DNA of 64,000 nt from Parcubacteria group bacterium (GCA_943354045.1 CALRBF010000001.1:136026-200025); one strand, 5' to 3'; positions 9,132 to 60,601 are shown, numbered from the stretch's first letter. A program made the numbers and translations. The notes: generated by a model not told the origin, from the letters alone.

Positions 9132-10907
9132 TTATATTTCAATAATAACCGGTATAATCATTGGCCTTCTATGTGTAGTTCTGAATAAGAATAATCCCAA
9201 ATCTTCACGAATTGATTGTTGTATATATTCAATACTTTGATCCTCTCCATGAGACAATTTTTTCTCAATATGTTCTTGTACTCGAGATTGTATAGATTGT
9301 ATTAATTTGGTAGATGTTTGAATATGAACAAATCCTTTAGAGATAATTTCTGGTTCACGAATACATTTTCCTTGTTTAAAATCAACTAAAGCTACTATGG
9401 TCACAATACCATCTTGAGCCAAGGATTGCCTATCTCGAATTACAATTTCTTTTAAGTCACCTATTCCAAGCCCATCCACCATCATAGTGCTAGCATTGAC
9501 TTTTTCTGTAGTAACACGAGCCTCTCCTTTATATATCTCTATAATTCTTCCATTATCAGTAAGCAAGATATTATCCTTTTTCATACCCGCTTCAATCGCT
9601 AAATCACGATGAGATTTGAGTGAATAAAAATCTCCATAAATTGGTTGTAAATATTTGGGGCGAATTAAATCTAATAATTGTTTTAAATCATCACGTTGAG
9701 CATGTCCAGAAACATGTACTTCCATCATTTTATAATGAATAATATGTGCTCTTTGGCGAGCAATAGCATCTTTCACTTTTTGTACTGACTCCTCATTACC
9801 TGGTACAACCGAAGATGAAAATACAACGGTATCTCCCTTTTCAATATGAAAATTACGATGCTCTCGATTTGCCATACGAGTAAGAGCCGAGCGCTCATCT
9901 CCCTGAGCTCCTGTACAAATAATAGTAAGGTTTTCTGGAGGAATATTACGAGCCTCTTGTGCACTAATAACAGTTTGAGGAGAAAAATGTGCATATCCAA
10001 TTTCATGGAGAATTTGAACATTAGTTTTCATACTAAATCCCTCTATCACAACTTTACGATTATATTTTTCAGACAAATGAATCATTTGCTGTATACGATT
10101 CAGAGTACTAGAAAATGTAGTGACAATAATTTTACCCGTAGCATTTTCAAAAATATGATCAATATTATTTTGAATAGTCATCTCAGAAGTAACCCTACCA
10201 GAACGAGAAGCACTCGTACTATCAGATAATAATACTAATACTCCCTCATCACCAATTTTACGATACATTTCTAAATCAGCCGGCTCCTCTCCAACAGGAG
10301 TAGCATCTATTTTAAAATCACCAGTATGGAGTATAACTCCTTCTGGAGTTTCAATTTTAATCATAGTTGAATCAGGAATACTATGATTAATATGAAGGAA
10401 AGTTACGGTAAAAGCTCCAAATTTAAGCTTTTCATTTAATTTAGCTACTTTTCCATTTAATGGAGGTACGGTGGTAAATTCACTTTGACGTCTTTGCATC
10501 ATAGCAAGAGGCAAAGCAGGTGCATATATAGGAGGATTTCCAATCATAGACATAACCTGCGATACTCCTCCAATATGGTCCATATGACCATGAGTAATAA
10601 GAACAGCTCGAATATTATCCTCTTTTCCTTTAAGATAACTTGGATTAGGAATAATATAATCAACTCCTGGCTGATCTTCTTCTGGGAATTTCATCCCAAT
10701 ATCAATGACGAGAATATCTTTTCCATATTCTATTACCGTCATATTACGACCTCCAATTTCTTCTGATCCACCCAATGGAATGATTTTCAAAAGATTATCT
10801 TTAGTCTTAAATGGTTCTTTTGCATTAAGATACTCATTACTTTTATGACTTAAATCTGTCACAAAAGTTGTTCCTCTCTTAATTTCAGAGTGTTGATACG
10901 ATTTCAT
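9132..10907 (-). CDS. rnj: Ribonuclease J (canonical paralog)
   Basis: Metallo-beta-lactamase motif II is intact (LITHGHMDHIGG). The beta-CASP and C-terminal domain lengths fit RNase J (591 aa). Confidence 0.85.
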   Translation of the reverse strand: MKSYQHSEIKRGTTFVTDLSHKSNEYLNAKEPFKTKDNLLKIIPLGGSEEIGGRNMTVIEYGKDILVIDIGMKFPEEDQPGVDYIIPNPSYLKGKEDNIRAVLITHGHMDHIGGVSQVMSMIGNPPIYAPALPLAMMQRRQSEFTTVPPLNGKVAKLNEKLKFGAFTVTFLHINHSIPDSTMIKIETPEGVILHTGDFKIDATPVGEEPADLEMYRKIGDEGVLVLLSDSTSASRSGRVTSEMTIQNNIDHIFENATGKIIVTTFSSTLNRIQQMIHLSEKYNRKVVIEGFSMKTNVQILHEIGYAHFSPQTVISAQEARNIPPENLTIICTGAQGDERSALTRMANREHRNFHIEKGDTVVFSSSVVPGNEESVQKVKDAIARQRAHIIHYKMMEVHVSGHAQRDDLKQLLDLIRPKYLQPIYGDFYSLKSHRDLAIEAGMKKDNILLTDNGRIIEIYKGEARVTTEKVNASTMMVDGLGIGDLKEIVIRDRQSLAQDGIVTIVALVDFKQGKCIREPEIISKGFVHIQTSTKLIQSIQSRVQEHIEKKLSHGEDQSIEYIQQSIREDLGLFLFRTTHRRPMIIPVIIEI

Positions 10908-10908
10908 A

Positions 10909-12675
10909 TTAAATATTCATTATTATTGGTAAAATCATTGGTCTTCTTTCTGTCTTAGTAAGTAATAAGCGACCAATATTTTCTCTTACTTCATCTTGTA
11001 TATAAGCAATATTTACTTCATCAGATTGTTTCAAAAGAGCCAATACAATTAATCTTGTTTGTTCTTTTACTTCATTAAATAGTTTCTCTGAAGATTCATT
11101 ATCTACAAAGCCCTTAGACACAACTACAATATCTCCCAATATTTCGCGAGAATCAGCATTAAGCAATGTTACAATATGTAATATACCCTCTTCTGACATT
11201 GTTTGTCTATCATGTATAACTACATTAGTTAAATCACCTACGCCTAGACCATCTACTATTACATTGGAAGTTGGAACTTTTTCCGGAGTGATACGCCTTT
11301 GTTTATAATCAAATAGAATGACTTTTCCATTCATACCTATTATTACATTACGATCTGGATACCCTCCTTTAATCGCAATATCTCCCGTAGACCTCAATAA
11401 ATGATGAGAACCACTAATAGGCACATAATATTTAGGGCGAATTGCTTTTAATACAGCCAAACTATCCTCATATCTTGCATATGCAGCAAATCGTGTATCA
11501 AGTGGCTGATAATATTCCACAAAAGCTCCTAATTTTGCAAAATTATCATTTACTCGAGCAGCTGAGCGAGCATTACCTGGAATTAATGCTCCAGGATACA
11601 TCACAATATCTCCCTCTTTAATTGAGAAAACACTATGTTCATTATTAGCTAGTCTCATCAAATGAGGAATATCATCCCCATGAGAACCAGATATTAATAC
11701 TACTAACTGCTCTCTTGGAGTATCCCCAAGTAAACTAGGTCCCACTATAGTACCTGATTTAATTTGAATAAACCCCTTTTTGCGACATGTATTAAACGTA
11801 TTAAGTAAACTTTTTCCTTCAATAAATAAATGCTTATTATGAGCTTCTACTGCATTGACAATTTGTTGCATACGCCCAATCATAGATGGAAATGTAGATA
11901 CAAATACCGTACCCGTAGTACGAGCTATAACCGAGTCAATATGCTCAGCAATGGAAGCCTCCTTAGGAGTAAACCCTTGAGATTCTGTAGCAGAACTTCC
12001 AGATAAAAGAGCAAATGTATCAGCTCCCGCTAATTCCTTTATATAATCGAGAAATTCATTTTTTTCTCCTGATTCACTATCCAATTTATAGCTAGAGAGA
12101 TAAAATACCTTTCCTTGCATAGTATACACACATAATCCTATTGAACCCATCACATTAAATGGAGTTGGAAAAACATTCACTTTAAAGGATCCTACTCGTA
12201 TAGAATTATAAGGTTTGATAATATGTTTTTTGTATTTTACCCCTTGAGAATAAAAATCCTGACGAGATTCCAATATTGCAAATAAAGCCTCTGTTGCATA
12301 AATATGCAGATTAGGAAATAAATGTAAAAGATATGGTACAGCCCCAATATGATCGGGATGTGGGGACGTTAATACTACTCCCTTTATTTTGGAGCTATTA
12401 TCCATCAAATACTGCGTATTGGGGATAATATAATCAATTCCTGGTTGATTAGCACCAGGCATTTGAAGCCCCATATCGACAATCAGAATATCATTTTCTT
12501 GCTCAAATATATACATATTCTTACCAACACCATCAAGCCCCCCCAAAGGAATGATTTTGAGAGCTTGGCGTGAAGTTTCAGGAATAGTTCTTTTTTGAGC
12601 AAAACTTTTTCCTTGAGATCGAGAACGGTTATTCTTATTCTGTGAATTATTATTGTATGGTCGTTTTGATTGCAT
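10909..12675 (-). CDS. Ribonuclease J paralog with degenerate motif II and Asn/Lys-rich N-terminal extension
   Basis: Same architecture as the upstream gene, but motif II reads LTSPHPDHIG (S-P-H-P-D-H, not H-x-H-x-D-H). About 45 aa of basic low-complexity N-terminus (MQSKRPYNNNSQNKNNRSRSQGKS...). Confidence 0.75.
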   Translation of the reverse strand: MQSKRPYNNNSQNKNNRSRSQGKSFAQKRTIPETSRQALKIIPLGGLDGVGKNMYIFEQENDILIVDMGLQMPGANQPGIDYIIPNTQYLMDNSSKIKGVVLTSPHPDHIGAVPYLLHLFPNLHIYATEALFAILESRQDFYSQGVKYKKHIIKPYNSIRVGSFKVNVFPTPFNVMGSIGLCVYTMQGKVFYLSSYKLDSESGEKNEFLDYIKELAGADTFALLSGSSATESQGFTPKEASIAEHIDSVIARTTGTVFVSTFPSMIGRMQQIVNAVEAHNKHLFIEGKSLLNTFNTCRKKGFIQIKSGTIVGPSLLGDTPREQLVVLISGSHGDDIPHLMRLANNEHSVFSIKEGDIVMYPGALIPGNARSAARVNDNFAKLGAFVEYYQPLDTRFAAYARYEDSLAVLKAIRPKYYVPISGSHHLLRSTGDIAIKGGYPDRNVIIGMNGKVILFDYKQRRITPEKVPTSNVIVDGLGVGDLTNVVIHDRQTMSEEGILHIVTLLNADSREILGDIVVVSKGFVDNESSEKLFNEVKEQTRLIVLALLKQSDEVNIAYIQDEVRENIGRLLLTKTERRPMILPIIMNI

Positions 12676-38816: not shown

Positions 38817-38890
38817 GGATGTGTAGCTCAGCTGGTTAGAGCAGTCGTCTTATAAGCGACAGGTCGGTGGTTCAAGTCCACCCATATCCA
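38817..38890 (+). tRNA. tRNA-Ile with genomically encoded anticodon UAU (reads AUA)
   Basis: GGATGTG-TA-GCTC-AGCTGGTTA-GAGC-A-GTCGT-CTTATAA-GCGAC-AGGTC-GGTGG-TTCAAGT-CCACC-CATATCC-A. The D arm and T arm are near-identical to bacterial tRNA-Ile (AGCTGGTTAGAGC; AGGTCGGTGGTTCAAGTCCAC). The anticodon loop is CTTATAA. Confidence 0.75.
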
Positions 38891-38909
38891 CATCAATAGA
38901 TAACCCATT

Positions 38910-40545: not shown

Positions 40546-42318
40546 CTAGGTATATATAACTCTAGGATTATACTGTTCCAAACCATTTTCTTTGTCTAAG
40601 ACAGTAGCAATTTCTTCACTCAATTCTCTTAATCGTGCCTGTTTAGTATCAAAATCATCGGGTTTTTGATATTGCTCTATATATTCTTTTAATTTATTAA
40701 TTGCTTTAATAATAGAATCCTTATCTGTAAGTTCTGTTTGCTCTAGTTTACCTCTTATATATTCACTTTGACTATATCTTTTATTTAATTCAACTACTCT
40801 AGATGTGTTAATAGAAAATTTAGAATTTATTGTATGATATTGACTAATATATTGGTCTCGCTCAGTAATCCTTAATTTTATATTTTCTAAAATTGGGCTT
40901 AATCTAGATATAGCATCTTGATCTCTAGAGGGATTCCATCTTGATTTAGATTTATTCTGTTCTAGATAATCCTCTATTTCTCTCAGTTCCCCTACTTTCA
41001 TTTTTTTGCTTTCTGGTATTCTAAAATTACGAAGTGCTCTAATATTACTTATAGCTGATCCTAATCTATCTAATTCAGTATTTAGAGATGTACTACTATC
41101 TTCAACTTTATTTGATAATTCCTCTAAGGTTTTTTGATAATCTTCTTGTAATTCAAAACCTTTACCTGTTAATCTAACTTCACAAGTGACTTTTTCTAAT
41201 TCTTCTGATAATAAATTTAGATTTATATTATCAGAAGACCTATCTCTTTCTAAATGAGAAGCTTCTTGATATGATGGATCTCCTTTAATACCCCCTACTT
41301 CTTGTTCTAAAGTATTTTTACTATCTCTAAGTAAATTTAATTCCCTCTCTTTAGCGCCCCTAGCAAAATATTGAATAGATTGTTCAGTAGATTCTGAGCC
41401 GTTATACACCTTTGAATCTACTTTTAGCTTTTTAATTTGCTCCATTCCATCAACATACCCGTATAATTCAAAAATTTCTTCCAAATCTCTATCTGATATA
41501 TAGAATTCTGTTTCACCCCTTACTTCTCGTGTGACCTTAGTTTCAGATAATCTTTTTTCTAATTCTCCTTTAGCTCGCTCTAATAAAATAGGTTTATCAT
41601 TCTCTTCTGCTCCAGTTTCTGCATAACTTGCCTGAGATTCTGTTAATTGCGTATTCAATTCTTCTAGCCTAGTTTGTATAGCTGTCTGTACTTGATTTTC
41701 AGTTTCTTGATCAAAAGTTTGTAAATTTTGTGCTACCTGTAATAAGGAATCTTCATTAGCCTTAATTGCTGCACCAAATTGTGGTTTACTTCGTGCTTTC
41801 TCAGTAAATTCTTCGATTGACTCTGTACTTTTAGGATTAGTTGCTTTTAACTTATTATAAGCTTCCTTAATCATCTGTAAAAGTTGTAGTTGTATTCCTG
41901 ACAATTTTGTTTTTGTATTTTCCAAACTAATTCTAGACTCTTGTCTAGATTGTAAAATTTCATTTTGTATTGCGTCAAACGCTTCTCCCTGCCTACTTTC
42001 TAATTGCTGAATTTGAGATTTAATGTCCTGTATTTCTAAGCCTTGTTCTGATAATCCATCTTCATTTACTTCAAATGATGGTTTTGATTCTTTTATTCCT
42101 TGATCGACTAATTCATCCAAATCAAAATTTAAGGAATCTGGATCAAGTTCTGGCTCTCCCTCAATAGCAGGAGACTCTTTATCTTCTATAGTTTCTAGAC
42201 CTGCTTGTAATTTAGCTAATTCTTCAGGGGATAATTCTGTAGATGCAGCATTACCAGAAGAACCTGCACCACCCTCTTGTTCTGGAGCATATACTATTGA
42301 ATTCTCAAATAATCTCAT
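40546..42318 (-). CDS. Large acidic coiled-coil protein (hypothetical), encoded directly downstream of ftsA
   Basis: 590 aa, E/Q/L-rich with heptad character throughout. No TM segment, no tubulin (GGGTGSG) motif and no P-loop. It lies 9 bp downstream of ftsA on the same strand. Confidence 0.55.
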   Translation of the reverse strand: MRLFENSIVYAPEQEGGAGSSGNAASTELSPEELAKLQAGLETIEDKESPAIEGEPELDPDSLNFDLDELVDQGIKESKPSFEVNEDGLSEQGLEIQDIKSQIQQLESRQGEAFDAIQNEILQSRQESRISLENTKTKLSGIQLQLLQMIKEAYNKLKATNPKSTESIEEFTEKARSKPQFGAAIKANEDSLLQVAQNLQTFDQETENQVQTAIQTRLEELNTQLTESQASYAETGAEENDKPILLERAKGELEKRLSETKVTREVRGETEFYISDRDLEEIFELYGYVDGMEQIKKLKVDSKVYNGSESTEQSIQYFARGAKERELNLLRDSKNTLEQEVGGIKGDPSYQEASHLERDRSSDNINLNLLSEELEKVTCEVRLTGKGFELQEDYQKTLEELSNKVEDSSTSLNTELDRLGSAISNIRALRNFRIPESKKMKVGELREIEDYLEQNKSKSRWNPSRDQDAISRLSPILENIKLRITERDQYISQYHTINSKFSINTSRVVELNKRYSQSEYIRGKLEQTELTDKDSIIKAINKLKEYIEQYQKPDDFDTKQARLRELSEEIATVLDKENGLEQYNPRVIYT

Positions 42319-42327
42319 ATATATTTT

Positions 42328-43590
42328 TTAATCTGGTAAAAAGGTCTTAATAAGTTTGTTGAGTGGACCCCATAATTTGAATGGGGTTTTCTTGGCTGAG
42401 CGACCTCCATCATAATCGAATCCCCCATCTTCTTCGGTATTACCAAATCCTTCTAAAATAAGTCCTACCAAATTAGCATATATAGCATTATCCACATCAG
42501 CAATACTTCCTTCTACTCCTTGAGGAATTCCAATTTTTACCGGAAGTTTTAATTCTTGTTTAGCCAAATCAGCTATAGAATTGAGATTTGCTCCCCCTCC
42601 TACTAGTACTGCTCCTGCTGGTAATAGTCCTTCTCTTTCTATTTCTTGTAATTCTTTTATAATAAGACCAAAAATTTCCTTTAATCGAGCTTCTATAATG
42701 CTCGCTATATAAGATATAGGAAATACCCCCACTTCCTCTGAATTCATTTTTGCTAAATCAATTTTGAGTTTGGAGTCTGCCCCGAGACCATCCTCAAGTG
42801 CTGAGCCATATTTCAACTTTACCTTTTCTGCAACTTCAATAGAAGTTCTAAGCCCAATAGCAATATCATTCGTAATATGTGCAGCTCCAATCGGGATAAT
42901 CGCAACATGAATAAGCCGCCCCTCTTCATATACCGCAAGAGAAGTTGTCCCAGCTCCCAAATCAATCACAGCAACTCCCAAATCTTTTTGTTTTTTGGTA
43001 AGTACTGCTTGAGCTGAGGCGAGTATACCAACTTCCTGATGTTCTATCCCGAGACCCAAAGTTTGTATACATTTTTCTAAATTCCTAATAGGAGATGCAT
43101 TCCCTTCCAGAATTAAAGCCTCTAATTCTAGACGAATTCCATTCATTCCAACAGGATTTTTTATCCCTGACTCTTCATCAAGAATATAGGTTTTGGGAAT
43201 AATAGTAATAATTTCTTTATTTTGACTACTTGGACCTGGATTAGCATTAGATAATACTCTTGCAATATCCTCCTCGGTAACCTCCCCATCAGCACGAGAA
43301 ACCGCCACTTTACCCGATGTCTCAAAACTTTTGATATGAGAACCATTCAATGATATAATCACCTGTTTTATATCCTCTTCTATCATTTTAGAAGCTGAAT
43401 CAAGAGCCAAATGAATACTACGAGTAGCATCTTGTATATCTACCACCACTCCTCGCCTCAAACCCTCACTAGGAGCCACGCCTAAAGCAATAATAGAAGG
43501 GTCTTTATCTTCTCTGAGACGCCTTCCTACCGCTATCTTTGTAAGTGATGTTCCTACGTCTAATCCAACTATTATTTCATTTTTGGACAT
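42328..43590 (-). CDS. ftsA: Cell division protein FtsA
   Basis: IVGLDVGTSLTKIAVG N-terminus, IPKTYILDEESGIKNPVGMNGIRLE (compare E. coli IPQEYAIDYQEGIKNPVGLSGVRM), IDLGAGTTSLAVY, GGGANLNSIADLA, and a C-terminal amphipathic helix KLWGPLNKLIKTFL. Confidence 0.85.
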   Translation of the reverse strand: MSKNEIIVGLDVGTSLTKIAVGRRLREDKDPSIIALGVAPSEGLRRGVVVDIQDATRSIHLALDSASKMIEEDIKQVIISLNGSHIKSFETSGKVAVSRADGEVTEEDIARVLSNANPGPSSQNKEIITIIPKTYILDEESGIKNPVGMNGIRLELEALILEGNASPIRNLEKCIQTLGLGIEHQEVGILASAQAVLTKKQKDLGVAVIDLGAGTTSLAVYEEGRLIHVAIIPIGAAHITNDIAIGLRTSIEVAEKVKLKYGSALEDGLGADSKLKIDLAKMNSEEVGVFPISYIASIIEARLKEIFGLIIKELQEIEREGLLPAGAVLVGGGANLNSIADLAKQELKLPVKIGIPQGVEGSIADVDNAIYANLVGLILEGFGNTEEDGGFDYDGGRSAKKTPFKLWGPLNKLIKTFLPD

Positions 43591-43636: not shown

Positions 43637-44095
43637 TTAGGAAAAGGAATAGTGTTTTTTTACTATCGCCAATAATTCCTGCTCCACTTGACTCATTTTC
43701 TGATATTCATCATCCATTTGATGATCATATCCTATAAGATGACATAATCCATGTATACAAAGTACCGCAATTTCATACTCTATACTATGCCCTAAATCTT
43801 GAGCTTGTATCAAAGCCTTATTATAACATATCATAATTTCCCCCAAAATCTGCTCCGGCAAACTCTGAATACTCGCCTCATCCCATAGCGGGAATGACAA
43901 CACATCCGTCACCTTATCCTGAGACCTATATTGAGCATTGAGATGCCGAATTGTCTCCTCTGACACAATAGCAATACTGACCGTAGTCTCCCTGAGATTA
44001 CGGTCAATATAATTGCTAAAACTATCAATACATAAAGCTATAAGATTATTATAGTCTGGAATATTGGGAACTTGTGTTTCAAATTCCAATATCAT
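43637..44095 (-). CDS. ybeY: Endoribonuclease YbeY (rRNA maturation factor)
   Basis: H..H.....H zinc motif HGLCHLIGYDH, 152 aa. Confidence 0.85.
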   Translation of the reverse strand: MILEFETQVPNIPDYNNLIALCIDSFSNYIDRNLRETTVSIAIVSEETIRHLNAQYRSQDKVTDVLSFPLWDEASIQSLPEQILGEIMICYNKALIQAQDLGHSIEYEIAVLCIHGLCHLIGYDHQMDDEYQKMSQVEQELLAIVKKHYSFS

Positions 44096-44098
44096 ATA

Positions 44099-44539
44099 TT
44101 ATCCTAATTTAGCCTGAACTAACGTTTTAATCTGATTACCATCAGCCTTACCTTGTGCTTTGGTAACCACTGATTTCATCACAGAACCAAAATTGGCAGC
44201 ACCCCCCAATTCAGCAATACTCGCATCTACCAATTGAGCTAATTCTTCATCTGAAAGCTTTGCTGGCAAATAAGATTGAATAATATCAAGTTCAGCCTGC
44301 TCTGAATCAACCAAATCTTCTCTTCCCGCATCGCGATAAGCTTGAATAGAATCTTTACGTTGTTTTTCGAGACGAGCTAATACCTTCATCACATCAATAT
44401 CCTCCAAAGGCGCTCCTTTATCAATTTCAGCATTTTTAAATTCTGAACTAAAAGTTCTAAGCACAGTCTTTTTGAGATCATTATGATCTTTCATAGCCTG
44501 TATCATATCTTTTTTAATTTGTAGCGCAATTTCAGACAT
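44099..44539 (-). CDS. GatB/YqeY domain protein
   Basis: About 146 aa, all-helical. It matches the YqeY family usually found between rpsU and ybeY/phoH in Firmicutes-like operons. Confidence 0.75.
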   Translation of the reverse strand: MSEIALQIKKDMIQAMKDHNDLKKTVLRTFSSEFKNAEIDKGAPLEDIDVMKVLARLEKQRKDSIQAYRDAGREDLVDSEQAELDIIQSYLPAKLSDEELAQLVDASIAELGGAANFGSVMKSVVTKAQGKADGNQIKTLVQAKLG

Positions 44540-44550
44540 AGTGAAAGGTA

Positions 44551-44820
44551 TTATTTGATACTTGCTTTAATTTTCAACTTATACTTATTAGGAAGTCTTT
44601 CTGTTGAACTAACTTTTCCCATTTTAACTAATTTATCTTTTTCAGTTAAAAATTGAACTTTTTTAATAGCAGCTTGTCTTTGCTTGGTCTTTGACTTATT
44701 TTTAGTCAAAAATCGTGAGGCTCGGGCTTCAGACAATACTTCGCTTTTCTGAATACGTCGAGTGAAGCGTCGAATCATAGATTCTACACTTTCTCTTTCT
44801 CTCTTTCTTACTTCTACCAT
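44551..44820 (-). CDS. rpsU: 30S ribosomal protein S21
   Basis: MVEVRKRERESVESMIRRFTRRIQKSEVLSEARASRFLTKNKSKTKQRQ matches S21. I chose the start at the internal ATG, preceded by AAGGAGG at -9. The track ORF starts 10 codons earlier. Confidence 0.8.
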   Translation of the reverse strand: MVEVRKRERESVESMIRRFTRRIQKSEVLSEARASRFLTKNKSKTKQRQAAIKKVQFLTEKDKLVKMGKVSSTERLPNKYKLKIKASIK

Positions 44821-44949
44821 ATAATATAACCTCCTTTCATGATTTTTCATTCGCTAAAAATAAGTCCTTAGCAAGACTTTGTTACAATTCTATCACAAAA
44901 TCAAAAGATTAGCAATAGTATGTATAAGATGAGGAAATCAATAGATAAA

Positions 44950-45245
44950 TTATGCTTTCGTAGCGGAGGCTTTAAGTCCCTCCCATACATTGTTTGGGAG
45001 GGGGTTTATCCCTCCACTATTGTTCTTATGTAGGGGAGACCTATCAGTCGCCTGTGATATATTTGAGCTTGAGCTTTTATCTCCCTCCAAAGGGAGGACA
45101 GAAATACAAGTTGCAGAATACTTCCACCCCACCATCTAAAAGACGGTACCCCTCAATTTATCTCCCGTAGGGAGAGAGGGGTAATTTAGAGTAACTAGAA
45201 AGAAGCCACCTGTTAGGGTGACTTAAGAGGTTTTTCCATCAAGTA
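44950..45245. repeat. GC-rich hairpin-dense repeat element, copy B (rearranged relative to copy A)
   Basis: Contains the same 19-mer CTTTAAGTCCCTCCCATAC (44970..44988) and the inverted copy of the GGCGAC-hairpin block (45025..45056). Serial CCCTCC/GGGAGG hairpins: GGGAGGGggtttatCCCTCC, TCCCTCCaaaGGGAGGA, TACCCCTC..TCTCCCgtaGGGAGA..GAGGGGTA. It lies immediately upstream of rpsU. Confidence 0.5.
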
Positions 45246-45569
45246 CTAAATGGGTCTTTGGGATTGTGGATTTAATATGTCTGACACTAGATTCCATAGC
45301 GAATCTGTTAGCTCAATGGTATGAATTGTATTATCAAATCTATATTGTCCTAAATCCTCCTCATGTTTAATGTTGAACCCAAACTCAATTTTTGTTCTTA
45401 ATATTTCAATATCTGTACTATGGTCTGCGGTGAGAAAATCTATTAAGCCTTCCCTAAATCCTACTATAGTTTTTATTTGGGATAGAATACTATCATAACA
45501 TCTAATCCAGTTCTTTCCCGATAATTGCCTTGCTTGTCCTGTCGTGTTTGACATTGGCTTATAAACCAC
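45246..45569 (-). CDS. Hypothetical 107-aa protein (orphan)
   Basis: An ORF only. No recognisable motifs. It sits between repeat copy B and the HisRS-like gene. Confidence 0.3.
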   Translation of the reverse strand: MVYKPMSNTTGQARQLSGKNWIRCYDSILSQIKTIVGFREGLIDFLTADHSTDIEILRTKIEFGFNIKHEEDLGQYRFDNTIHTIELTDSLWNLVSDILNPQSQRPI

Positions 45570-45691
45570 TTAATGTGGTGTGATAGTGCAATTTATATAT
45601 ACCATAAAAATGACATTTTGTCTATCTTAGATAGGAAATTGGAGTATAGTTTATAATTAATTATTATTTGTCTTTGTATTGATTTACCAAT

Positions 45692-46972
45692 TTATTCTTT
45701 TCCTAATTTATGAGAAATTATTGATAATAATTTGTCGATAGGTATTATTTCTTGATTCTCACTTTCTTTATCTCTGAGTATTACTGTTCCATCTACTGCT
45801 TCTTTGCGTCCTACTATGAGGGTGATTTCTGCATCTGATTTTTTTGCTTTTAATAATTGTTGTTTGAGACTTTTGATTCCAAAGCTTTCTTTTACTCCAA
45901 GTCCATGTTTTTGAATAAGGGATAAAATTTTTAAAGCACTTTTTTGTCCTTCAGGTCCAATAGAGGCTACAAAGATATCTGGCTTTTTTTTCTCAATCAC
46001 AGCATCTGTTTGTATTTGCTTTACAATATGTACCAGGGCATCTACATAAATCTCCACCCCCACTGCTCCTGTTTTTTTATCTCCTCCCAAGAGAGTGAAT
46101 AATTCATTGTGACGCCCTCCCCGCACTAATACAATATCTGGATTGTCCTGACTTCTAATTTCAAAATACACTCCTTCATTGAATCCAATTGAACCCGAAA
46201 GTTGAGAGTCTAATTCATAGGGAATATCTAATGTCTCTAAAAATTCTAACACTGCTTTAAAGTATTGTGTTTCTGTAGTACTGAGATAATCTACAATTTG
46301 TGGTAATCGCAAATTAATATCCATATCTTCTAAAGATAATTCATTATATAATCGTATTGGATTATATTGTAATGCCTTCACTAATTCTGCAAAACGAGGT
46401 TGTGATTTTGATACTAATTCCTCATAATATTTTCGTCGTGATTCTTGGCTCCCAAGTTCATTGATGGTAACTATTAAATTAGGTATAGATAATTCTTCAA
46501 GCATTCGATAAGTGGTGAGAATTAATTCGGAGTCCCTTACAGGCATATCATCCCCAATACATTCGGCCTTGAATACATGAAATTGCTGTGGTTCTGTTCC
46601 TATATTATCATCTTCATCTACTAATGATATTCCATAATCAAATAATTTTAATGGTTCCTCTTTATAATCAAGATTATGCTCAATAACTGATTTGAATATG
46701 CTAATAGGTCCTGGAACACTCATTACAATGGCATCTTTGCTATTACTCTTTAGAGTTAGGAGAGATTTTTTATCATTAAGATTGAGCTCAGAAATAATTT
46801 CCGGAGTAAATAAAGAAAGTTTTTGACTAAAAGCAAACACATTATGCTGATAGCCTGTACTTTGTAAAGTTAATCGTATATCTGCAACAATATGTTCCCA
46901 GATGGCAGCTGTTTCGCTTGTAATTTTATTTGCTGACAGTGAGGGAAATGGATGTAATATATTCTTACTCAT
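45692..46972 (-). CDS. Histidyl-tRNA synthetase-like protein lacking canonical catalytic motifs (HisZ-like / pseudo-synthetase)
   Basis: HisRS fold blocks are recognisable (ETAAIWEHI..., QQFHVFKAECIG vs RQFHQLGCEVFG; VRGGRHNEL vs GGRYDGL; C-terminal anticodon-binding-like domain IFVASIGPEG). But LRPEGT is replaced by MSVPGP, and the motif 2 FRHERPQKGR is replaced by SLVDEDDNIGTE. Confidence 0.55.
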   Translation of the reverse strand: MSKNILHPFPSLSANKITSETAAIWEHIVADIRLTLQSTGYQHNVFAFSQKLSLFTPEIISELNLNDKKSLLTLKSNSKDAIVMSVPGPISIFKSVIEHNLDYKEEPLKLFDYGISLVDEDDNIGTEPQQFHVFKAECIGDDMPVRDSELILTTYRMLEELSIPNLIVTINELGSQESRRKYYEELVSKSQPRFAELVKALQYNPIRLYNELSLEDMDINLRLPQIVDYLSTTETQYFKAVLEFLETLDIPYELDSQLSGSIGFNEGVYFEIRSQDNPDIVLVRGGRHNELFTLLGGDKKTGAVGVEIYVDALVHIVKQIQTDAVIEKKKPDIFVASIGPEGQKSALKILSLIQKHGLGVKESFGIKSLKQQLLKAKKSDAEITLIVGRKEAVDGTVILRDKESENQEIIPIDKLLSIISHKLGKE

Positions 46973-46980
46973 ACTCTATG

Positions 46981-47622
46981 TTAATTACTTTCTATAAATC
47001 TCTCCTTGGAAAATACGGTTATCGCATTAAAGGGAAATAGTCTCACTGCGGGCTTTCCTACTATATAGGACTTATCTAAAAGACCCCAAGAGCGAGAATC
47101 CGAGCTATTACCTCTATTATCTCCTAATACAAAATATTTATTTGGTTCTACGATTATATCTATTGGTTCGGGGGAAATAGTTTTGATTCCATCTGTAATA
47201 TATGCCTCATCTAATTCAGTTGGAATCGCTCCGTTGTTTTCATATAGAATTACTGTTCCATCTTTTATTACTACTCTATCTCCTGGAAGACCAATAACTC
47301 TTTTAATATAATATTCTCTCTGAGCTCCTCCTGGAATAAATTCTGTATGAAAAACAATTACCTCAAATCGATGTGGTTCACGAAAACGATAAGATAATTC
47401 ATCTACGATTAAGTAATCTCCATCTGAAAAGGTTTGCTCCATAGAGCGACCTTTTACTAAAAATGGCTGAGCAATATATGTCTTAATAATAAAGTAAATA
47501 ACAGCAAAAATAAGTACTGTTTTGATGAAGTCCCACATTTCAGCCCGCCAAGTATTTGCTTTTTGTTTTACTTCTAGTATTTGTTGACTATCTTCCATAA
47601 AGATTCTGATTAGATAGAGCAA
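46981..47622 (-). CDS. lepB: Signal peptidase I
   Basis: TM anchor, catalytic Ser region GRSMEQTF, Lys region YIKRVIGLPGD, and GDNRGNSSDSR. Confidence 0.85.
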   Translation of the reverse strand: MLYLIRIFMEDSQQILEVKQKANTWRAEMWDFIKTVLIFAVIYFIIKTYIAQPFLVKGRSMEQTFSDGDYLIVDELSYRFREPHRFEVIVFHTEFIPGGAQREYYIKRVIGLPGDRVVIKDGTVILYENNGAIPTELDEAYITDGIKTISPEPIDIIVEPNKYFVLGDNRGNSSDSRSWGLLDKSYIVGKPAVRLFPFNAITVFSKERFIESN

Positions 47623-59098: not shown

Positions 59099-60601
59099 TC
59101 ATCTTTCTCCTAATTTTACTCCTTGTTTGCGTAAATTATTGCGTATGGTACGAGCTGCTGATGGGGTTTTTACCATATTGAGCCAATCCCGATGAGGCTT
59201 TTGTTTTTTATCAGTAATAATTTCTACCAAATCTCCATTTTTTAAATTTTCTGATAATTTGACTGGGCTTCCATTTACCTTAGCTAAACTTGCATGTTTT
59301 CCAATATCCTGATGTATTCTAAATGCAAAATCAAGAGCAGTAGCCCCTTCAAGCAATCGAATAGCATCTCCCTTTGGGGTCATAACAAAAATTTGATCTT
59401 GAAATAAATCTAATTTCACATATTGCAAATATTCTTGCTCAGATAATGGTTCTTTACCTAAATTAACTAAGTCCTGTATCCACTTAAATCTATCGGTATC
59501 AATAAAAGAATGGGTTTCTATATCCGATTTCTGTTTATAAGACCAGTGTGAGGCAACTCCATATTCACAATATTCATGCATTTCCTCGGTACGAATTTGT
59601 ACTTCGAATACGGTATTGGTTTCTATATCTCTGACTGTTGTATGAATACTTTGATATCCATTATCTTTTGGATTAGCAATATAATCCTTTACTCTGTTTT
59701 CTAAAGGTTCAAAATGAGATTGTATTAGTGAAAATACCTGATAACAAGTAGCAAGATCCGGAGTTATAATTCTAAGAGCAATTAAATCATATACTTCATC
59801 TACTGTTTTTCCGGCACCTAATTTTTTATATAAAGAATAATATTTTTTTGCTCTTCCATAAATGATAATATTCTTAATATCTTCTTCCTCAAATATGTGC
59901 TCAATATTTTTTTGAATATGTTCTAATACATTTTGACGAATATCATATTCTTGAGCTACCTCCTCTACCAAGGCTTTATATTCTTGAGCATAGGCATAGG
60001 GGAAACTTAAATTTTCAAGTTTATCTTGAAATTTCCCCATACCTAATCTCTCCGCAATAGGAGCATATATTTCTAAACTCTCAAGAGCAATACGTCGTGC
60101 CTTTTCTGGAGGGAGAGCATCAAGAGTTTCAAGATTATGTAATCTATCAGCTAATTTAATAAAGATAACCCGAATATCACGACTCATTGCAACAAACATA
60201 CGCCGCAAATTCTCAGCATATCTATCTTCTCCTTGATATCTTATACTCGATAATTTTGTCACTCCCGATATGAGGAAAATTACTTCACGACTAAATATTT
60301 TTTCTAATTGTCTTAAGCTAACCTCAGTATCCTCAGGTACATCATGAAGCAAAACTGCTATTAATGTATCTCGGTCTAATTTCATATCAGCCAAAGTGAT
60401 ACAAGCTGATACCGGATGAATAATATAATATTCACCACTTTTACGACGCTGCTCCTGATGAGCATCCACCATTTGCATAAAAGCAATTTCCACTTGCTCT
60501 AAATCAGCTGAATTAAGATATAATAAGTACGGCTTCAAAAAATCCCAAAGTTGTTTACTGGCAATTTCCAAATTATCTCTACTAATATTATGCATATACA
60601 T
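59099..60601 (-). CDS. rel: Short RelA/SpoT-family (p)ppGpp synthetase/hydrolase (HD + synthetase + TGS, no ACT domain)
   Basis: HD motif LLHDVPEDT, a synthetase region (YQSIHTTV), and a TGS domain near the C-terminus. 500 aa. Confidence 0.8.
   Translation of the reverse strand: MYMHNISRDNLEIASKQLWDFLKPYLLYLNSADLEQVEIAFMQMVDAHQEQRRKSGEYYIIHPVSACITLADMKLDRDTLIAVLLHDVPEDTEVSLRQLEKIFSREVIFLISGVTKLSSIRYQGEDRYAENLRRMFVAMSRDIRVIFIKLADRLHNLETLDALPPEKARRIALESLEIYAPIAERLGMGKFQDKLENLSFPYAYAQEYKALVEEVAQEYDIRQNVLEHIQKNIEHIFEEEDIKNIIIYGRAKKYYSLYKKLGAGKTVDEVYDLIALRIITPDLATCYQVFSLIQSHFEPLENRVKDYIANPKDNGYQSIHTTVRDIETNTVFEVQIRTEEMHEYCEYGVASHWSYKQKSDIETHSFIDTDRFKWIQDLVNLGKEPLSEQEYLQYVKLDLFQDQIFVMTPKGDAIRLLEGATALDFAFRIHQDIGKHASLAKVNGSPVKLSENLKNGDLVEIITDKKQKPHRDWLNMVKTPSAARTIRNNLRKQGVKLGER

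Follow-up and report, generated by a model that had tools for sequence, protein, structure and literature searches.

Which function of a histidyl-tRNA synthetase (HisRS), other than catalysis, merits keeping in a small genome, and which enzyme then charges tRNA-His? These questions are raised by an open reading frame (ORF) in a stretch of 64,000 nucleotides from a Parcubacteria group bacterium (GCA_943354045.1, CALRBF010000001.1:136026-200025; hereafter, the window). Its product, given the working name HisX, is a free-standing protein of 426 amino acids without further domains, and has a class II core, an insertion domain and a C-terminal HGTP anticodon-binding domain (ABD) in the order found in HisRS. 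HisX is best described as a HisRS-derived pseudo-synthetase made by in-place conversion of a hisS ortholog. As judged by sequence conservation, the constraint on it now lies on the ABD and on the former histidine site, where the pocket is remodelled and largely acidic.

Identification of HisX as a HisRS homologue

The segments MSVPGP, SLVDEDDNIGTE, QQFHVFKAECIG and GGRHNEL are all present in the translation of HisX. The NCBIfam profile for hisS, TIGR00442, matched HisX with E = 1.4e-45 and spanned profile positions 9-405 of 406, and the Pfam families tRNA-synt_His (PF13393) and HGTP_anticodon (PF03129) were each found above the gathering score. Pairwise comparison by HMMER with HisRS proteins from the PDB gave E = 3e-33 for the S. 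aureus and E = 7e-31 for the E. coli enzyme. The AlphaFold (AF2) model of HisX, with a predicted local distance difference test (pLDDT) score of 84 and a predicted template modelling (pTM) score of 0.78, had bacterial HisRS structures as its top matches in Foldseek (E ~1e-29). These matches bear out the initial annotation of the ORF, made from the sequence alone, in which HisX was aligned block by block with HisRS.

The score of HisX on TIGR00442, 156 bits, does not reach the equivalog cutoff of 286.75. Other members of the clade to which HisX belongs (see below) score 150-178 bits, and the canonical HisRS proteins P0040, P0041 and L034, encoded in the same genomic slot, 459-461 bits.

Loss and retention of canonical residues

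The canonical residues are numbered as in E. coli HisRS, and their replacements were read from two independent alignments, one pairwise by HMMER and one of 62 sequences by MAFFT. In HisX, both E83 and T85 are replaced by Pro. The position of R113 is occupied by Val or Asp, depending on the alignment; this ambiguity of one column is immaterial because the entire 13-residue stretch that replaces FRHERPQKGRYR (HisX residues 116-128) includes neither Arg nor Lys. The position of R121 is occupied by Thr in the HMMER and by Glu in the MAFFT alignment, and Val and Lys are present in place of Q127 and G129, respectively. In the HisA motif, R259, Y263 and Y264 are changed to Gly, Phe and Asn, respectively, and E310-R311 of motif 3 is changed to Asp-Ala. 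E131 (E137 of HisX), F269-E270 and, in motif HisB, the GGR are retained; of the ATP- and histidine-binding residues of canonical HisRS, all save E131 are substituted.

In the MAFFT alignment, the same replacements were present in all 39 relatives from the protein database. An alignment artefact was ruled out, as HMMER, MAFFT (62 sequences) and hmmalign were concordant on the placement of the motifs, and the erasure of the catalytic signatures that had been proposed at first thus stands. In the catalytic domain, 44 of the 80 positions invariant in canonical HisRS are lost and 28 are kept. In the ABD, 6 of 8 such positions are kept, and this domain, expected from the initial annotation to be retained, is recognised by Pfam above the cutoff (Table 1).

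The positions that contact the ATP phosphates in HisRS vary widely within the clade, the entropy being 2.77 bits at R121 and 2.85 bits at R311, and the position of F125, which stacks on adenine, has an entropy of 1.43 bits. Variation at these three positions indicates that no ATP site is conserved. The motif 2 loop, which reads the acceptor end in HisRS, is acidic and has a mean entropy of 1.15 bits. The ATP site has thus been freed from constraint, which appears incompatible with adenylate formation and argues strongly against any aminoacylation activity of HisX; with its contacts replaced, HisX would bind neither ATP nor histidine and so would be unable to aminoacylate tRNA. The Arg of motif 3 is still present (as KIDR) in the early-branching P0039/L033 sub-lineage, and this suggests stepwise erosion after the loss of function.

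The 13 positions of the former histidine pocket behave in the opposite way, with a mean entropy of 0.11 bits versus 1.06 bits for the catalytic domain as a whole (permutation P < 0.0001). The new residues that are frozen in the clade are P87-G88-P89, V133, K135, G260-S261, G263-F264-N265, R284 and H288 (HisX numbering), and E307, Y309 and D311 near the pocket are likewise fixed. This pattern supports a histidine pocket that was remodelled and then frozen, i.e. neofunctionalisation rather than decay.

Distribution of the family and selection on HisX

Relatives of HisX were drawn from a collection of 5.8 billion proteins, in which 39 clusters with HisX-type replacements were found at 37-95% identity to HisX; next in identity are canonical HisRS proteins at ~30%. 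The clade proteins, when complete, consist of 425-436 amino acids, and all those with a named source come from metagenome-assembled genomes (MAGs) of Parcubacteria/Paceibacteria. When 1.84 billion representatives (50% clustering) were searched exhaustively with a profile, about five clade representatives scored at least 398 bits and were followed by a gap down to 252 bits. A scan of GTDB revealed the clade in 16 assemblies, all of them Paceibacteria/Parcubacteria MAGs (JBIKWJ01, JBIIRM01, CAZPCB01, JALQTA01, JBEDBC01, CALMJI01, CAZYEN01, JBIKVS01, JBEAQD01, JAULZW01, JBMTTF01, CAJXTH01, PXDG01, CAZWIJ01, JAHEOE01 and PXOY01). The clade proteins P0060 and P0031 are encoded on contigs of 425 kb and 353 kb, respectively. 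Conservation in relatives, a point raised together with the initial annotation, is evident from these assemblies and from the 39 clusters. In a flanking-gene tree, the clade is monophyletic with 100% bootstrap.

The exact HisX protein is encoded on contigs of up to 425 kb from at least 13 independent assemblies, and the gene copies that encode it differ at 0-2 nucleotides, necessarily by synonymous changes. The ratio of nonsynonymous to synonymous substitution rates (dN/dS), computed against the 88%-identical member in locus L016, is 0.089 for the whole gene (dS 0.81), as compared with 0.064-0.111 for seven flanking housekeeping genes. HisX is under strong purifying selection, comparable to that on its essential neighbours. 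By region, dN/dS is 0.115 in the catalytic part and 0.028 in the ABD. When two clade members share 55-75% overall identity, the identity is 0.89 in the ABD versus 0.62-0.64 in the catalytic regions; the corresponding values for canonical Patescibacteria HisRS at equal overall divergence are 0.74 and 0.66-0.70.

In annotations, the clade proteins are named HisRS (JGI), HisZ (NCBI) or hypothetical, and none of these names is accurate. Full-text searches of the literature revealed no account of a degenerate HisRS or an orphan HisZ in the candidate phyla radiation (CPR)/Patescibacteria.

HisX occupies the hisS slot

The gene order GalT-RadC-LepB-HisX-S21-YqeY-YbeY-FtsA is present in the window and at every clade locus. 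Six canonical HisRS genes of Patescibacteria (P0040, P0041, L034, P0049, P0044 and P0048) share this slot, the order there being Pth/LepB-hisS-HIT-S21-(YqeY)-YbeY-FtsA-FtsZ. Between the window and locus L001, HisX is 64% and the flanking proteins are 67-90% identical; for the P0039 genome versus the window, the values are 38% and 33-56%, respectively. Given the shared slot and a divergence that tracks that of the neighbours, HisX is not an additional paralog: in one Paceibacteria lineage it is the ortholog of hisS, by position and by vertical descent. The earlier view of HisX as a paralog of HisRS thus holds as regards the homology, and not as regards its being a side copy.

At all six canonical same-slot loci, hisS is followed directly on its 3' side by a gene for a HinT-type HIT hydrolase, and at four of the six the two genes overlap by 4-8 bp. 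No HIT gene was found at window positions 44851-45691 or in any degenerate locus among L001-L033 and L035-L040; in the phylogeny, the degenerate loci stand for no more than one or two independent events. Aminoacyl-adenylates and other AMP conjugates of this kind are substrates that HINT enzymes hydrolyse; hence the co-loss of the HIT gene fits a loss of adenylate formation.

The same interval, 44851-45691, is the spacer between HisX and rpsU, and is a strain-variable insertion spot. In the window it holds a 107-amino-acid ORF with a GTG start (45246-45569, minus strand), and the closest relatives hold an orphan ORF of 102-107 amino acids. The spacer is empty in L016 and L018 and includes a gene for a 330-amino-acid membrane protein in L019 (11877-12869).

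In the MAG isolate BSH.5, the LepB-HisX region is present twice, on contigs L020 (JALQTA010000001) and L021 (JALQTA010000079), due to either a mixture of strains in the bin or a duplication.

Table 1. Features of HisX and its locus, and HIT genes of canonical loci. Coordinates are those of the window unless a locus is named; residues are numbered as in HisX.
Feature	Coordinates	Strand	Remarks
HisRS-like ORF (HisX)	45692..46972	-	426 amino acids, ATG start, stop codon included in coordinates
Class II HisRS-type catalytic fold and insertion domain, residues 1-325	45998..46972	-	AF2 pLDDT mostly >85
HGTP anticodon-binding domain, residues 331-426	45695..45982	-	PF03129 29.8 bits vs cutoff 21; most conserved part of HisX
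P87-G88-P89, in place of E83-G-T85 of LRPEGT (histidine alpha-amino contacts)	46706..46714	-	invariant in the clade
Motif 2 remnant, residues 116-140 (SLVDEDDNIGTEPQQFHVFKAECIG)	46553..46627	-	acidic loop, no Arg/Lys, instead of FRHERPQKGRYR
HisA remnant, residues 258-265	46178..46201	-	LSGSIGFN from LVRGLDYY; from alignments
HisB-derived RGGRHN, residues 284-289	46106..46123	-	GGR retained; R284 and H288 new, invariant
Motif 3 remnant, residues 305-312	46037..46060	-	GVEIYVDA from G-x-A-x-G-x-E-R; Arg311 position hypervariable in the clade
Signal peptidase I (LepB)	46981..47598	-	upstream neighbour of hisS slot; 8 bp from HisX start codon
rpsU (S21)	44551-44820	-	downstream of HisX; conserved slot neighbour
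yqeY	44099-44539	-	downstream of HisX; conserved slot neighbour
ybeY	43637-44095	-	downstream of HisX; conserved slot neighbour
ftsA	42328-43590	-	downstream of HisX; conserved slot neighbour
HIT gene after hisS, L006	3647-3991		
HIT gene after hisS, L007	7470-7826		
HIT gene after hisS, L034	~11174		
HIT gene after hisS, L045	2579-2932		
HIT gene after hisS, L046	5488-5847		
HIT gene after hisS, L047	3293-3652		

A second group of degenerate HisRS-like proteins

A second monophyletic group of Patescibacteria (loci L035-L040, from the GTDB MAGs CAZNYP01, CAYZSZ01, JAGOVB01, CAZBVG01, CAYJCZ01 and CALLZK01; proteins P0055, P0057 and P0058) has a degenerate HisRS-like gene, X, in the same hisS slot. 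The gene order is Pth-LepB-X-S21-YbeY-FtsA-FtsZ, with no HIT gene downstream, and the proteins score 129-147 bits on TIGR00442, below the cutoff. As in the HisX clade, the arginines of motif 2, HisA and motif 3 are lost or changed; the replacement residues, however, are different, e.g. FKHSSK, LIGNKKYC and LIKK. In regard to shared versus independent loss in the two groups, a neighbour-joining tree of the flanking genes gave one grouping with 37% and the other with 54% bootstrap.

Of the 149 representatives (50% clusters) that lie closest to the clade profile, about 60 keep no more than 9 of 13 key catalytic residues. Full-length HisRS-like proteins whose active sites are eroded are thus diverse, and they seem to be numerous and undescribed.

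Source of His-tRNA

His accounts for 1.6-1.9% of residues at the clade, group-2 and canonical-bearing loci, which is a normal usage. His-tRNA is thus still required, and some enzyme must charge tRNA-His. The genome under study was examined over ~84 kb, i.e. the window and 10 kb past each edge, and very probably a second HisRS is encoded elsewhere in it, since the stepwise loss of 44 of 80 invariant residues would not be possible for a single-copy essential enzyme without an alternative source of His-tRNA.

A canonical copy with a clade-like ABD was not found among the canonical representatives, which thus gave no sign of a recent sister copy; P0040 and P0041, encoded in the same slot, come nearest in each of the two domains and are 43% identical in the ABD. 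Of four canonical matches checked, none had a degenerate copy in the same assembly, and there was no tRNA-His gene near the locus in 30 loci. Genome-wide degeneration of synthetases was ruled out by the GluRS encoded in the window, which is canonical, its score on TIGR00464 of 484 bits being well over the cutoff of 290.

It is improbable that the clade genomes have no other HisRS homologue and still translate their ~1.8% of His codons with a sole HisRS-like protein that has no canonical ATP or histidine site. If true, this would imply that His-tRNA-His is made on a class II scaffold by a radically new route, that the charging enzyme is non-homologous, or that a host supplies either the charged tRNA or the synthetase. 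The chance that HisX is the sole HisRS homologue, small but non-zero, matters as it would make HisX exceptional.

Comparison with known HisRS-derived proteins

HisX resembles bacterial HisRS (TIGR00442; PDB 1KMM, 1QE0 and 4RDX) in fold, domain order, length and genomic slot, and shares with it E131, the GGR of HisB, F269-E270 and most of the ABD invariants. It differs in the absence of the motif 2 and motif 3 arginines and of R259, R121, E83, T85, Q127 and Y263/Y264, as well as in the acidic motif 2 loop, the freely evolving ATP-contact positions and the lack of a coupled HIT gene.

Like HisZ (TIGR00443; PDB 3OD1), HisX is an inactive derivative of HisRS that would have a non-catalytic role. 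However, HisZ acts with HisG, is encoded in his operons, usually has an absent or degenerate ABD and belongs to an old paralog family, whereas HisX has a bona fide ABD, is encoded in the hisS slot and is a converted ortholog.

The HisRS-like domain of GCN2 (PDB 8T7T; Foldseek rank 35, E = 2e-20) is likewise built on a HisRS-derived scaffold. It is a pseudoenzyme that includes an ABD-like part and binds uncharged tRNA as a sensor. Basic residues of motif 2 mediate this binding. The domain is part of a multidomain eIF2-alpha kinase, whereas HisX stands alone and has an acidic motif 2 loop. By its sequence, HisX would belong to neither the HisZ nor the GCN2-domain family, and it lacks the catalytic residues that define HisRS.

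Evaluation of alternative explanations

In principle, HisX could be the sole HisRS and charge tRNA-His by means of a re-architected site, e.g. with Mg2+ bound by D119, D121, E307 and D311 in place of the arginines. Its position in the orthologous slot, the strong purifying selection, the retention of E131, the HisB GGR, F269-E270 and the ABD, and the failure to find a second HisRS in ~84 kb of this genome or at related loci are all as such an enzyme would have them; moreover, redundant genes are rarely kept in streamlined genomes, and the many full-length HisRS-like proteins with partial and often conservative changes (R to K, E to D) suggest a continuum. It is nevertheless an improbable explanation. 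Both universally invariant class II arginines, of motifs 2 and 3, are absent along with the HisRS-specific R259 and the histidine-binding E83, T85, Q127 and Y264; the variation within the clade at the positions that contact the ATP phosphates and adenine is incompatible with a conserved mode of ATP binding; and the motif 2 loop, the reader of G-1:C73, is acidic and variable. In addition, an essential single-copy enzyme would not tolerate the stepwise loss of 44 of 80 invariants in the catalytic domain, and the partner HIT gene is lost. Somewhat less doubtful, though still unlikely, is that HisX is the non-catalytic subunit of a heterodimer with a separate catalytic HisRS-type protein, to which it would supply the ABD or which it would regulate in trans. 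HisRS forms an obligate dimer and gave rise to HisZ as a partner subunit; together with the hyper-conserved ABD next to a dead active site, this speaks for a heterodimer, which would also account for the retention of HisX in a small genome. However, no partner was identified, and several conserved residues of the motif 1 region are altered in HisX (P44, E47, R54, G57 and D61). Among the nearest representatives, moreover, there was no HisRS consisting of the catalytic domain only, the short matches being N-terminal truncations that include the ABD.

A role of the HisZ type, as a regulatory subunit for HisG or another phosphoribosyltransferase, is suggested by HisZ being the known catalytically inactive HisRS paralog, by the label 'ATP phosphoribosyltransferase regulatory subunit' that the NCBI pipeline gave to clade member P0022, and by a weak match of HisX to TIGR00443 (E = 1.6e-10). 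This match amounts to 40.6 bits, far short of the cutoff of 271.65 and below the 152-156 bits that canonical HisRS proteins reach on the same profile. No HisZ structure was among the Foldseek top 50, HisX has a bona fide HGTP anticodon-binding domain and is encoded in the hisS slot rather than in a his operon, and neither hisG nor another gene of histidine biosynthesis was found in the window, 10 kb past each edge or at the annotated related loci. HisZ identity was rejected on the basis of the TIGR00443 score and the Foldseek result, in agreement with the initial annotation, in which this role had been considered implausible; a HisZ-type function is very unlikely. Finally, loss of catalytic motifs would also be shown by a dying gene. 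A pseudogene is excluded by the dN/dS of 0.089 and by intact ORFs (425-436 amino acids) in all members across 37-95% identity, and an alignment or assembly artefact is opposed by the confident AF2 model, the concordance of two alignment methods and the identical protein in at least 13 independent assemblies; the probability of either is negligible.

Proposed function of HisX

On balance, the explanation favoured over these alternatives is that HisX is a catalytically dead pseudo-synthetase, retained for a function that its ABD and remodelled pocket serve, tRNA-His being charged by another enzyme. As a non-catalytic protein, HisX would most likely hold tRNA-His, or another RNA, by its ABD, whereas its acidic motif 2 loop would no longer dock the acceptor end. 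If a small cationic ligand or a partner protein binds in the remodelled pocket, as may be the case, HisX would be a regulator or a sensor, as HisZ and the HisRS-like domain of GCN2 are. The separate enzyme that charges tRNA-His would be encoded elsewhere, and the redundancy may have permitted the loss of the catalytic site of HisX.

Several points weigh against this explanation. A second HisRS gene was found neither in the window or within 10 kb past its edges nor within 10 kb on either side of ~30 other degenerate loci, and a streamlined genome would not usually keep two HisRS homologues. HisX has changes at two canonical ABD invariants (R352 to Gln and G405 to Glu); hence the RNA specificity of the ABD may differ from that of HisRS. 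The pocket residues are located in core beta-strands, and their conservation may be partly structural. The binding of tRNA and of a ligand is inferred from conservation.

HisZ and the HisRS-like domain of GCN2 exemplify the recruitment of aminoacyl-tRNA synthetase scaffolds for sensing and regulation. In the present case, the hisS ortholog itself, and not an old paralog, appears to have been converted, and it was kept in place in a streamlined CPR genome under a constraint that equals that on its ribosomal and cell-division neighbours. There is a practical consequence as well. hisS (TIGR00442) is a standard single-copy marker gene, and marker surveys with this profile would score the lineages described here as lacking hisS.

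Other features of the window

The rest of the window consists of ordinary CPR housekeeping genes and includes no hisG or other his gene.

A RelA/SpoT homologue, which would be relevant if HisX senses uncharged tRNA, is encoded at 59099-60601 (minus strand). This short protein (500 amino acids) has an HD, a synthetase and a TGS domain, and Pfam recognises no domain C-terminal to the TGS one.

Downstream of ftsA, the clade has an acidic, coiled-coil-like ORF of 550-620 amino acids (window 40546-42318, minus strand; 619 amino acids in L001 and 550 in L016), which had no match in Pfam or PDB. At the canonical and group-2 loci, the position after ftsA is occupied by ftsZ, which was found nowhere in the 64-kb window.

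Tandem RNase J paralogs are encoded at 9132-10907 and 10909-12675 (minus strand); for the second, the scores of the beta-CASP and metallo-beta-lactamase domains are markedly lower.

In bacteria, AUA is normally decoded by a tRNA whose CAU anticodon carries lysidine, and a tRNA-Ile with a UAU anticodon is uncommon. The window includes a gene for such a tRNA-Ile (UAU) at 38817-38891 (plus strand), which is conserved across the clade, being present also in L008, L016, L017, L020, L023, L027 and L029.

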